Source of the DNA: a virus
Taxonomy: Duplodnaviria; Heunggongvirae; Uroviricota; Caudoviricetes
IMG/VR virus record: IMGVR_UViG_2703718820_000005
Location: 1-5,322 of that record
Strand: one strand, 5' to 3'
DNA length: 5,322 bases
Program-made: the position numbers and the translations under genes
The notes under the pieces: generated by a model
Database searches by the model: none
Told to the model about the DNA's origin: nothing
The model's input: only the letters and a program-made list of their open reading frames with translations
Shown here: piece after piece, positions 3,567-4,013 of the stretch
How positions within the stretch are numbered: the first letter of the stretch is position 1
Layout: every line of letters starts with the position of its first letter

Positions 3567-3662
3567 ATGATTAGTCAATTACCAAACTGGAAATTTTTGC
3601 TGGTCTGGAGCATCCCTTTTTTATGGGTAGTATCCCAGTTAATTGTGGCAATTAAGGGGTAG
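3567..3662 (+). CDS. Candidate micro-ORF, 31-aa hydrophobic peptide
   Basis: ATG at 3567 with AGGGAG 9 nt upstream. The peptide MISQLPNWKFLLVWSIPFLWVVSQLIVAIKG has one predicted transmembrane helix. Its stop at 3660-3662 lies 2 nt before the next start. The longer 3450 start in the ORF track would run through the terminator hairpin, so it is disfavoured. Confidence 0.3.
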   Translation: MISQLPNWKFLLVWSIPFLWVVSQLIVAIKG

Positions 3663-3664
3663 CT

Positions 3665-3796
3665 ATGTCAGACAAACTCATAACGCCGGCAAAGGTCCTG
3701 TGTGTGATTGTCGGTATTTCATTTTCACTAATGCTGGTTGCTCTTTTTCTGTCCCTCGCCTGGGTGATGTTGTCTTCGTCGGGGCTGCTGGGGTGA
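3665..3796 (+). CDS. Candidate micro-ORF, 43-aa single-transmembrane peptide
   Basis: Strong Shine-Dalgarno AAGGGG (3654-3659) 5 nt upstream of ATG 3665. The peptide is MSDKLITPAKVLCVIVGISFSLMLVALFLSLAWVMLSSSGLLG. Confidence 0.45.
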   Translation: MSDKLITPAKVLCVIVGISFSLMLVALFLSLAWVMLSSSGLLG

Positions 3797-3915
3797 CAGT
3801 GACTGATGACATCAGCAGAGCGCTGGCTTTTGCTATTAAGTGGGTGGCTGTTGGTATTGCTGTGTCTCCGATGCTGTATGGGCTGGCAAAACTGGTCATT
3901 GCGCTGAAATCGTGA
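3793..3915 (+). CDS. Candidate micro-ORF, ~40-aa hydrophobic peptide (GTG start overlapping the previous stop), paralogous to the next micro-ORF
   Basis: GTG at 3793 overlaps TGA 3794-3796 in a GTGA coupling arrangement. The peptide ...DDISRALAFAIKWVAVGIAVSPMLYGLAKLVIALKS shares a (D/E)xxRA(L/M)AFAI(K/R)xVA(V/I) block with the 3927 ORF. The start codon is uncertain. Confidence 0.4.
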   Translation: MTVTDDISRALAFAIKWVAVGIAVSPMLYGLAKLVIALKS

Positions 3916-3926
3916 ACTTTAAAAAG

Positions 3927-4013
3927 ATGAGTGCTGAACTTATTCGGGCAATGGCATTTGCCATTCGTATTGTGGCCATTGCTGTTCTGGTCTGGGCAAT
4001 CCGTTGGTGGTGA
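3927..4013 (+). CDS. Candidate micro-ORF, 28-aa hydrophobic peptide, paralogous to the preceding micro-ORF
   Basis: ATG at 3927; its stop TGA 4011-4013 lies 1 nt before the Rz ATG at 4015. The peptide [28 protein letters not shown] aligns with the previous ORF with about 8 identities and 7 conservative changes over 19 residues, while the DNA differs at synonymous positions. Weak RBS. Confidence 0.35.

Follow-up and report, generated by a model that had tools for sequence, protein, structure and literature searches.

The window analysed here is the whole 5,322-nucleotide stretch (positions 1 to 5,322) of IMG/VR virus record IMGVR_UViG_2703718820_000005 and, judged by its sequence, comes from a lambdoid prophage of E. 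coli, of which it forms the late region. We examined four open reading frames (ORFs) of very small size, designated O1 to O4, which lie between the endolysin gene R and the i-spanin gene Rz of the lysis cassette. Comparison of related loci indicates that these micro-ORFs are genuine, selected genes of three peptide families (A, O1; B, O2; C, O3 and O4), and that with the hairpin preceding them they form a portable accessory module, which recombination appears to alter in copy number, order and composition. A preliminary description of the window had held that the interval of about 640 bp between R and Rz is not empty and contains a terminator followed by ORFs; this was borne out, the spacer measuring 642 bp (R stop 3372, Rz start 4015) with a hairpin at 3463-3500 (Table 1).

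Table 1. Features of the R-Rz spacer and of the surrounding lysis cassette (positions are those of the window)
Feature	Coordinates	Strand	Basis and remarks
O1, 31 codons, family A	3567..3662	+	ATG 3567, TAG 3660-3662; phrog_6632; MISQLPNWKFLLVWSIPFLWVVSQLIVAIKG
O2, 43 codons, family B	3665..3796	+	ATG 3665, TGA 3794-3796; phrog_4906; MSDKLITPAKVLCVIVGISFSLMLVALFLSLAWVMLSSSGLLG
O3, family C, long type	3793..3915	+	phrog_1115/3246/4493
O4, 28 codons, family C, short type	3927..4013	+	ATG 3927, TGA 4011-4013; paralogue of O3
Intrinsic-terminator-shaped hairpin (5' A-tract, GC stem, 3' T-run)	3463..3500	+	Terminator scan
Post-R spacer, apparently non-coding	3373..3462	+	Variation and an interrupted ORF
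S, class II holin (pinholin), S21-type	2026..2241	+	Pfam PF04971, E = 7e-33
186-aa ORF between holin and endolysin	2242-2802		phrog_1085 match; kin to 'YdfR family' annotations, function unknown
R, 177-aa lysozyme with N-terminal signal-anchor-release (SAR)-like domain YGLLAAVLALIAAGAPAP	2839..3372	+	Pfam PF00959, E = 1e-24
Rz, i-spanin	4015..4482	+	Pfam PF03245, E = 4.5e-51
Rz1, o-spanin, embedded within Rz	4235..4420	+	Pfam PF06085, E = 1.7e-21
Esterase gene end (SASA/NanS-p-type), then DUF826 gene, then S21-type holin	5' part of window		
Terminase small-subunit gene	3' of Rz/Rz1		

Four back-to-back ORFs of 31, 43, 40 and 28 codons had been proposed; their coordinates and frames were confirmed, but a gap of 11 nt between O3 and O4 (with the O4 start at 3927) had gone unmentioned. 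The O1 Shine-Dalgarno sequence (AGGGAG, 3552-3557) is 9 nt upstream of its start, and that of O2 (AAGGGG, 3654-3659), 5 nt upstream, lies within the 3' end of O1. O3 may start from GTG 3793, which forms a GTGA overlap with the O2 stop, or from GTG 3799, giving 40 or 38 codons up to its TGA at 3913-3915; O4 has an alternative GTG at 3912, again as a GTGA overlap, from which it would comprise 33 codons; and the Rz ATG is situated one base 3' of the O4 stop. At O1/O2, O2/O3 and O4/Rz of the window, stop and start overlap or are separated by 1-2 nt. A chain of four equally tight ORFs arose in 13 of 5000 shuffles of positions 3501-4014 (0.26%), and the junctions elsewhere were alike, i.e., ant/O1' (ATGA), ant/O2 (TGATG) and O2/Rz (GTGA), where ant is the antirepressor gene. 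The calls of the Prokaryotic Genome Annotation Pipeline (PGAP) pose an annotation problem for both O1 (70 aa, starting at a GTG inside the terminator hairpin; 3450-3662) and O3 (51 aa, from CTG 3760; 3760-3915). The extra residues in these two calls were not conserved in other contexts, and the comparative data are better fitted by the 31-codon O1 and 40-codon O3 starts of the preliminary description.

Selection was assessed by comparing nonsynonymous (dN) and synonymous (dS) divergence within a set of about 260 related loci, gathered from phage records, from IMG/VR and from assemblies. O1, compared over codons 8-31 with the diverged form O1' of ant-bearing phages, gave dN 0.105, dS 0.749 and dN/dS 0.14, against about 0.8-2.1 in the other frames; the short and long forms of O3 gave dN 0.012, dS 0.27-0.37 and dN/dS 0.03-0.1, against about 0.9 or a non-computable value in the other two sense frames of O3. 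For O2 versus its copies in Shiga toxin (Stx) phages, dN/dS was 0.26-0.41 at dS 0.5-0.7; all 248 full-length copies (247 loci) were intact, and the length was fixed at 43 codons down to about 62% identity. In Stx phages (Min27, BP-4795 and Sakai) the O2 start has changed from ATG to ATA, and upstream ATGs, overlapping the ant stop, take over. O4 showed little variation, including one variant with an in-frame insertion of one codon, and gave weak direct evidence of selection. O1 carried nonsense mutations in five loci and a frameshift in one, and O3 a frameshift in two, and because of these disruptions both seem to be dispensable in at least some prophages. Most of the loci were near-identical, so that independent substitutions were few.

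The preliminary description had suggested comparing synonymous with nonsynonymous change, and frame conservation, across homologous prophages; the ratios for O1, O2 and O3 were below 1 and O2 was always open, but O1 and O3 were broken in a few prophages. Its contention that selection acts upon the peptides, as opposed to these being chance ORFs, is borne out and reinforced by the purifying selection by codon, the keeping of frame across shuffled contexts, the compensation for start-codon loss, and the ribosome footprints on an O2 homologue described below. Two further observations were made on these sequences. Among 25 unique O2 sequences, codons 4-8 and 18-25 had zero synonymous variation and neighbouring codons varied synonymously; codons 18-25 do contain amino-acid replacements, and the invariant stretch includes the rare codons ATA and CTA. 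This may represent a nucleotide-level constraint, or it may represent shared recent ancestry. A 73-aa ORF on the minus strand (3678-3899) is also open, and its frame, which shares the wobble positions of O3, gave dN/dS 0.11; it was rejected as an antisense gene because it spans the O2/O3 junction and is incompatible with the observed reshuffling.

A different account of the chain is that all or some of the ORFs, especially O4 and O1, are hitch-hiking by-products of recombination, and that their translation may serve only as a relay carrying ribosomes from the hairpin to Rz, the peptide sequence being incidental. The overlapping stop/start chain does end one base before Rz, and the ends of the ORFs are shaped by the Shine-Dalgarno sequence of the next ORF (KG-stop and GLLG-stop); O1 and O3 are disrupted in some loci, and O4 is almost without informative variation among loci that are mostly near-identical, with few independent substitutions. 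We nonetheless regard this account as improbable: frame-specific purifying selection on amino acids is seen for O3 (0.03-0.1) and O1 (0.14), O3 keeps about 80% identity between E. coli and Salmonella, and O2, at 62-77% identity, retains its frame and length across 276 phages. In lambda late transcription, moreover, the Q-modified RNA polymerase needs no translation to avoid polarity.

Each peptide had been described as essentially one transmembrane helix, and this was examined using the Hessa sum over 19 residues. The description is solid for O2, which has a clear transmembrane domain (TMD; sum -3.5, compared with -3.9 for the Rz TMD), and acceptable for O1, with one marginally hydrophobic helix (+1.4); it is loose for O3 (+3.7) and O4 (+1.2, longest uncharged run 11 residues). 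The latter two are weakly hydrophobic, cationic and amphipathic, with a conserved Ala-rich face on the helix, and are nearer to the SAR domain of R (N-terminal sum +4.2; R stop codon 3370-3372) than to a classical TMD. O2 is predicted to be oriented N-in/C-out by the positive-inside rule, its basic residues being on the N-side only, and O3 and O4 may be interfacial or weakly inserted. A 60-aa form of O3 (O3L), with a basic N-terminal extension of 20 aa, is found in E. coli, E. marmotae and Salmonella, and AlphaFold2 modelled the O3-type core of this form as a single uninterrupted 38-residue helix (residues 22-59, predicted local distance difference test score about 90). The functional class of holins is defined by at least one TMD, a highly charged hydrophilic C-terminus, and formation of a lethal hole at a programmed time; of these, TMDs are present, and the C-termini of the four peptides have no charged tail (O2 ends in SSSGLLG, O1 in KG, O3 in KS and O4 in RWW).

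The preliminary description had also drawn attention to a block, RA(L/M)AFAI(K/R)xVA(V/I), shared by O3 and O4 with differences at synonymous sites, and here it was upheld. The Smith-Waterman score of 47 compares with 23.2 +/- 4.6 for shuffled sequences and was reached in 0 of 5000 shuffles, BLASTP of O3 versus O4 gave E = 2e-4, and five of the eight identical residues are encoded by different codons. Natural in-frame O3/O4 chimeras joined at the conserved block occur in both directions, P0300 and P0301 having an O3-type N-terminus with an O4 C-terminus, and P0302 an O4-type N-terminus with an O3 C-terminus. These comparisons support O4 as a paralogue of O3.

Evidence of translation is available for the O2 family, in accord with the ribosome-occupancy check that the preliminary description had put forward. 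The supplements of Huecker et al. 2017 (PMC5597208) place XECs191 (MMGWLMISDKLITLVKSLCVLVGISFLVMLVAIFFSTAWRVLTLSGLVG) among the RIBOseq-supported intergenic genes of O157:H7 Sakai, with a transcriptome value of 30.0 and a translatome value of 12.6 reads per kilobase per million mapped reads (RPKM) in LB, a ribosomal coverage value of 0.43 and an ORF coverage of 0.55, and they predict for its product a place in the inner membrane and a single transmembrane helix. XECs191 is ECs_1966 in the current RefSeq, a member of the O2 family located between the antirepressor gene and Rz of prophage Sp10. It and ORF50 of BP-4795 have about 65-70% identity to O2 of the window and resemble it in having a single TMD, in forms of 48-49 aa between ant and Rz; they differ by an N-terminal extension, MGWLM-, which is present because the O2 ATG is ATA in both, and by standing alone without O1, O3 and O4, and their records give no function. 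The ORFs of the window are, then, real, selected and mobile members of the late operon, and translation has been shown for the O2 family.

O2 is the core member of the set and the one most widely spread. O2 DNA was detected in 1702 of 5426 complete E. coli genomes (about 31%) at 4602 places, with up to 11 per genome, and tblastn found O2 in 276 phage records, mostly of Stx1- or Stx2-converting phages; most of the GenBank records of Stx phages leave the O2 ORF unannotated. O3 was found in 12 phage records and O1' in 11 (the O1 search being by tblastn), and the O3 family extends at about 80% identity to Salmonella enterica and E. marmotae. Plaque-forming or inducible phages have kept the module, as have most Stx phages. 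An exhaustive search with a profile hidden Markov model (HMM) of 1.84 billion representative proteins returned 28 clusters, all of them close O2 relatives but one; a marginal profile match to a 1105-aa protein, considered as a distant O2 relative, was taken as spurious. No match to O2 or O3 was found among the GTDB species representatives.

The peptides are visible in databases as uncharacterised micro-genes annotated as hypothetical. Profile-HMM matches to PHROGs were obtained for O1 (1.3e-12, 6632), O2 (4.5e-21, 4906), O3 (3.7e-25) and O4 (3.8e-6) (both 1115/3246/4493), and PHROGs 6632, 4906, 1115, 3246 and 4493 are all listed as 'unknown function'; RefSeq has WP accessions that name 'hypothetical' proteins. 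None of the four matched Pfam at E <= 1, including the holin families and DUF2730, nor did they match NCBIfam, or the PADLOC defence models at E <= 1. A search of the main texts of the literature for the peptide strings found nothing, the reviews and surveys of Stx-phage cassettes make no mention of the ORFs, and we found no paper discussing them beyond the RIBOseq list, nor any paper or curated family that assigns them a function. The earlier statement that they are not a described module holds in that no paper or curated family gives a function, but must be qualified by the existence of the WP accessions, the PHROGs, BP-4795 ORF50 and XECs191/ECs_1966.

The 642-bp spacer was 100% identical in O55:H7 CB9615, O103:H2 12009 and many further strains, and at least 80% of it was present in 587 of the 5426 complete E. 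coli genomes. In each case for which the upstream sequence could be read, a hairpin with A-tract, GC stem and U-tract sits between the endolysin gene and the first micro-ORF, and it lies upstream of the first micro-ORF in every cassette type examined. The terminator scan placed the hairpin of the window at 3463-3495, with a stem of 15 pairs and a T-run to 3500; ten pairs are conserved across contexts, one of them with compensatory changes (UG/GC/AU/UA). It has the GC-rich stem-loop, U-run and conserved structure by which Rho-independent terminators are recognised. The fold of 3373-3570 had z = -3.3, and the promoter scan found no plus-strand sigma-70-like promoter between R and Rz. A long-range RNA pairing around the hairpin, hinted at by the minimum free energy fold, was dropped since the repeat finder did not support it; the same program found no long inverted repeat beyond the hairpin, and Rfam gave no match within 3373-4013.

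Between R and the hairpin, the small ORF that other loci have at 3373-3462 is interrupted in the window. The stretch just after R is hypervariable (3388-3446) and has two main alleles; in 24 unique, otherwise near-identical 642-bp spacers it contained 23 of the 38 variable sites, which suggests a recombination patch. The sequence GCAGAATATTTTGCTGAAAAAT, 3' of R (3373-3395), recurs after the lipoprotein gene of GH108 and M15 cassettes (L257 3462-3500, and L255), and has the look of a recombination linker or of a conserved boundary between modules.

These features might mean that the locus is mainly an RNA or DNA element (hairpin, signals for mRNA processing or stability, recombination linker) in which the ORFs are secondary, and it could be argued from the conservation of the hairpin with its compensatory pair across cassette types, the z-score of the fold, the O2 codons (4-8 and 18-25) without synonymous variation, and the recurrence of GCAGAATATTTTGCTGAAAAAT at module edges. 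Such an element would leave unexplained the frame-specific purifying selection, the compensated start codon and the ribosome footprints, and it has neither an Rfam family nor a long inverted repeat other than the hairpin; we judge it the most improbable of the readings weighed here.

Scarcely more probable is that the ORFs encode depolarising peptides of type I toxin character, governed by an antisense RNA that ends at a bidirectional hairpin. The peptides do resemble the type I toxins (Hok, Ldr, Ibs, TisB, ZorO), a class of hydrophobic peptides, 19-50 aa in length and consisting of a single helix, of which some are carried by prophages, and the resemblance in size and hydrophobicity is to the Hok-, Ldr-, Ibs- and TisB-type in particular; the A-tract and T-tract of the hairpin could terminate minus-strand transcripts, and one promoter-like site on the minus strand (3671-3642) faces the hairpin. 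That single match is, however, below chance expectation (1 found versus 3.7 expected), and its -10 is not conserved in the O1' phages, where ant and not the hairpin is upstream. Type I toxin genes stand alone with their own promoter and antisense RNA, whereas O1 to O4 form a chain within a late operon and lack both a promoter of their own and a supported antisense partner, and Rfam was empty over 3373-4013.

The micro-ORFs occur in several arrangements other than the R-O1-O2-O3-O4-Rz of the window. Those with ant are R-ant-O1'-O2-O3-O4-Rz and R-ant-O1'-O2-Rz; in R-O3L-O2-Rz the order is swapped and O3 bears the 20-aa basic N-terminal extension; and R-O3L-O2-O3-O4-Rz and R-O1-O2-O3-O2''-Rz were also found. 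Through this shuffling every module retains a start, a stop and a ribosome-binding site of its own. Among E. coli loci with the cassette type of the window, the holin is of the same type (S21) wherever readable. The wider contexts are diverse: in Salmonella, O3L is situated between the gene of a SAR-type lysozyme and Rz, and a holin_2_3 gene lies upstream of it; in further E. coli prophages, with holin_8 and holin_3_7 genes, the gene of a GH108 endolysin is followed by one O3-type and one O2-type gene, which have a 65-aa C-terminally anchored ORF before them and a small lipoprotein gene after them; an O3L/O4 chimera follows an M15 peptidase endolysin; and in one contig hairpin-O1-O2 comes directly before a lambda-S-type holin. 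No i-spanin was called in the holin_8/holin_3_7 cassettes with a GH108 or M15 endolysin.

In every context found, those with pinholin, SAR lysozyme and Rz in E. coli and Salmonella included, the module is within or directly abuts a lysis cassette. As judged by these comparisons, what stays constant is the hairpin, the late-operon strand, the translational coupling and the lysis-cassette address, and not any particular partner protein. Two side observations concern the neighbouring genes: the lipoprotein of 51-60 aa that comes after the O3-type and O2-type genes (L257 2600-3500; also L258, L256 and L255, where it is a pseudogene) has the lipobox LVGC and belongs to phrog_7528, of unknown function; and a gene for a pertussis-toxin-S1-like ADP-ribosyltransferase (L260 2613-3338) is downstream of the lambda-type lysis cassette preceded by hairpin-O1-O2.

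As to the remainder of the window, the S holin has a dual-start motif (Met1 and Met4), the 186-aa ORF begins with a GTG that abuts the S stop, and R proteins of Stx phages have been described as SAR endolysins (PMC8136144). The terminase small-subunit gene contains a GATC-rich repeat (4917-4961) encoding IDHEIDHKTDHEIDHD. A weak Rfam match to the enterohaemorrhagic E. coli small RNA Esr41 (1335-1407, minus strand; 30.4 bits, the gathering score being 102; E = 0.0078) coincides with the terminator that lies downstream of the esterase gene.

The peptides were compared with known small membrane proteins of phages. ORF52 of Salmonella phage BSPM4, of 64 aa with one TMD, is located in the membrane, and it binds the holin and brings about a delay in lysis (PMC11657625); it is likewise a small one-TMD phage protein and acts by the kind of mechanism that we propose for O1 to O4, but it shares no sequence similarity with them, is encoded outside the lysis cassette, is toxic when over-expressed, and has an experimentally established function, whereas the role of O1 to O4 is inferred. 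The 'releasin' gp25 of Mu (DUF2730) is a 99-aa N-out/C-in protein that has a TMD at its N-terminus and a 73-aa acidic cytoplasmic domain; it controls the release of a SAR endolysin, a few genes downstream of which it is itself encoded (PMC9239132). It resembles O1 to O4 in being an accessory protein, anchored in the membrane, whose gene is downstream of that for a SAR endolysin; it differs in that O1 to O4 have 28-43 aa, no soluble domain and no DUF2730 match, and are found also near soluble GH108 and M15 endolysins.

The holin of the window is of the phage 21 type. In the S21-71/S21-68 antiholin logic of that phage, membrane-held TMD1 inhibits TMD2; O2, predicted N-in/C-out, has the orientation of the inhibitory inserted TMD1, and the O3 helix with its GxxxS loosely resembles TMD2, but homology was unsupported (hhalign 1.5%; no Pfam holin match) and the peptides are present also beside unrelated holins. 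O3 was rejected as a homologue or mimic of the pinholin TMD2, given an uncorrected p of 0.004 among 17 tests and the hhalign value of 1.5%, and is left with a weak resemblance only. Similarly, O2 is not considered a duplicate of the N-terminal TMD of Rz: VLCV, LVA and LSL are shared in order, with Smith-Waterman p = 0.07, and p = 0.8 against another Rz type. Spanin membership was discarded (O1 to O4 have no periplasmic domain or lipobox, and Rz and Rz1 are separately present), and the four do not belong to a Pfam holin family, to the DUF2730 releasins or to a locus with type I toxin architecture.

The role that we favour, tentatively, is accessory modulation at the inner membrane of the membrane steps of lysis, because of the address of the genes, their timing and the precedent of BSPM4 ORF52. 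A trans-acting holin modulator would be marked by physical binding to the holin and a shift in the time of triggering, for which the position within lysis cassettes and the membrane character of the peptides are indirect evidence. Insertion into the membrane, the topology there, late expression in the phage of the window and any effect on lysis are inferred. A late transcript, antiterminated by Q, would be read through the hairpin into the micro-ORFs, which share the strand of S, R and Rz and have no detected plus-strand promoter of their own, as is consistent with membership of the late operon; ribosomes would be passed from ORF to ORF and then on to Rz. The peptides would enter the cytoplasmic membrane alongside holin, endolysin and spanin at the time of lysis, and would tune the timing or sharpness of holin triggering and the dependent steps, by helix-helix contacts or by a general effect on the energised membrane, as antiholin or co-holin peptides do in trans. 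Since the module works with cassettes that are unrelated, a generic action seems likelier than one fitted, lock-and-key fashion, to S21 or the SAR domain; the target could be membrane energisation or packing, or a host membrane factor. A stronger version, in which hairpin and array constitute a self-contained mobile 'lysis-tuning kit', a combinatorial set of three families that can be plugged into any holin-endolysin cassette to act in a generic way on the energised inner membrane, is a long shot. On that version, in the GH108/M15 cassettes, with no i-spanin called and a small lipoprotein gene after the O2-type gene, the peptides might even be part of an undescribed envelope-disruption device that replaces the spanin.

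Several points weigh against a role in lysis timing. The link is one of guilt by association from position in the cassette, and R/Rz junctions are known mosaic hot spots that also house cargo such as ant. The module co-occurs with unrelated holins, endolysins and spanins, with no single specific partner apparent, and there are many related cassettes that function in its absence, as in K-12 Qin, where rrrQ and rzpQ overlap directly. Some prophages carry a broken O1 or O3, the dN/dS of O2 is only moderate, and O4 is almost without informative variation; the likeness of O3 to the second TMD of the pinholin is non-significant (hhalign probability 1.5%); the RIBOseq signal of XECs191 is low and came from uninduced cultures; and a terminator directly upstream is odd for genes co-expressed with R.

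Some of these points would suit real peptides that act outside lysis as cargo, e.g., in superinfection exclusion, against other phages or on host membrane physiology, which we hold to be unlikely, if less so than the other alternatives. The R/Rz junction does also house ant, the module can be absent and can move between cassettes that are unrelated, up to 11 copies occur per genome, and an O2 homologue gave RIBOseq signal in uninduced Sakai cultures; that signal could, however, come from spontaneously induced cells. Further, no promoter was found for expression in the lysogen, the hairpin terminator is upstream where typical morons have it downstream, the ORFs are tightly coupled in translation to one another and to Rz, and PADLOC gave no match.

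As accessory small membrane proteins of phage lysis cassettes, O1 to O4 are unusual in their shuffling, portable architecture and in belonging to a group of phages with medical relevance. Few gene sets in biology have been studied as well as the lambdoid S-R-Rz cassette, and yet the conserved O2 goes without annotation, between ant or R and Rz, in most Stx phages and in about 31% of complete E. coli genomes; the locus exposes concrete annotation errors (wrong starts, missed ORFs) and is a clean natural example of the evolution of micro-genes by module shuffling and paralogue chimerism. Should there be no role in lysis, the peptides would still be a useful entry in the catalogue of translated small membrane proteins. 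In Stx phages lysis frees both toxin and phage, and an unrecognised modulator of lysis timing, if this is what the module proves to be, would bear on toxin release.

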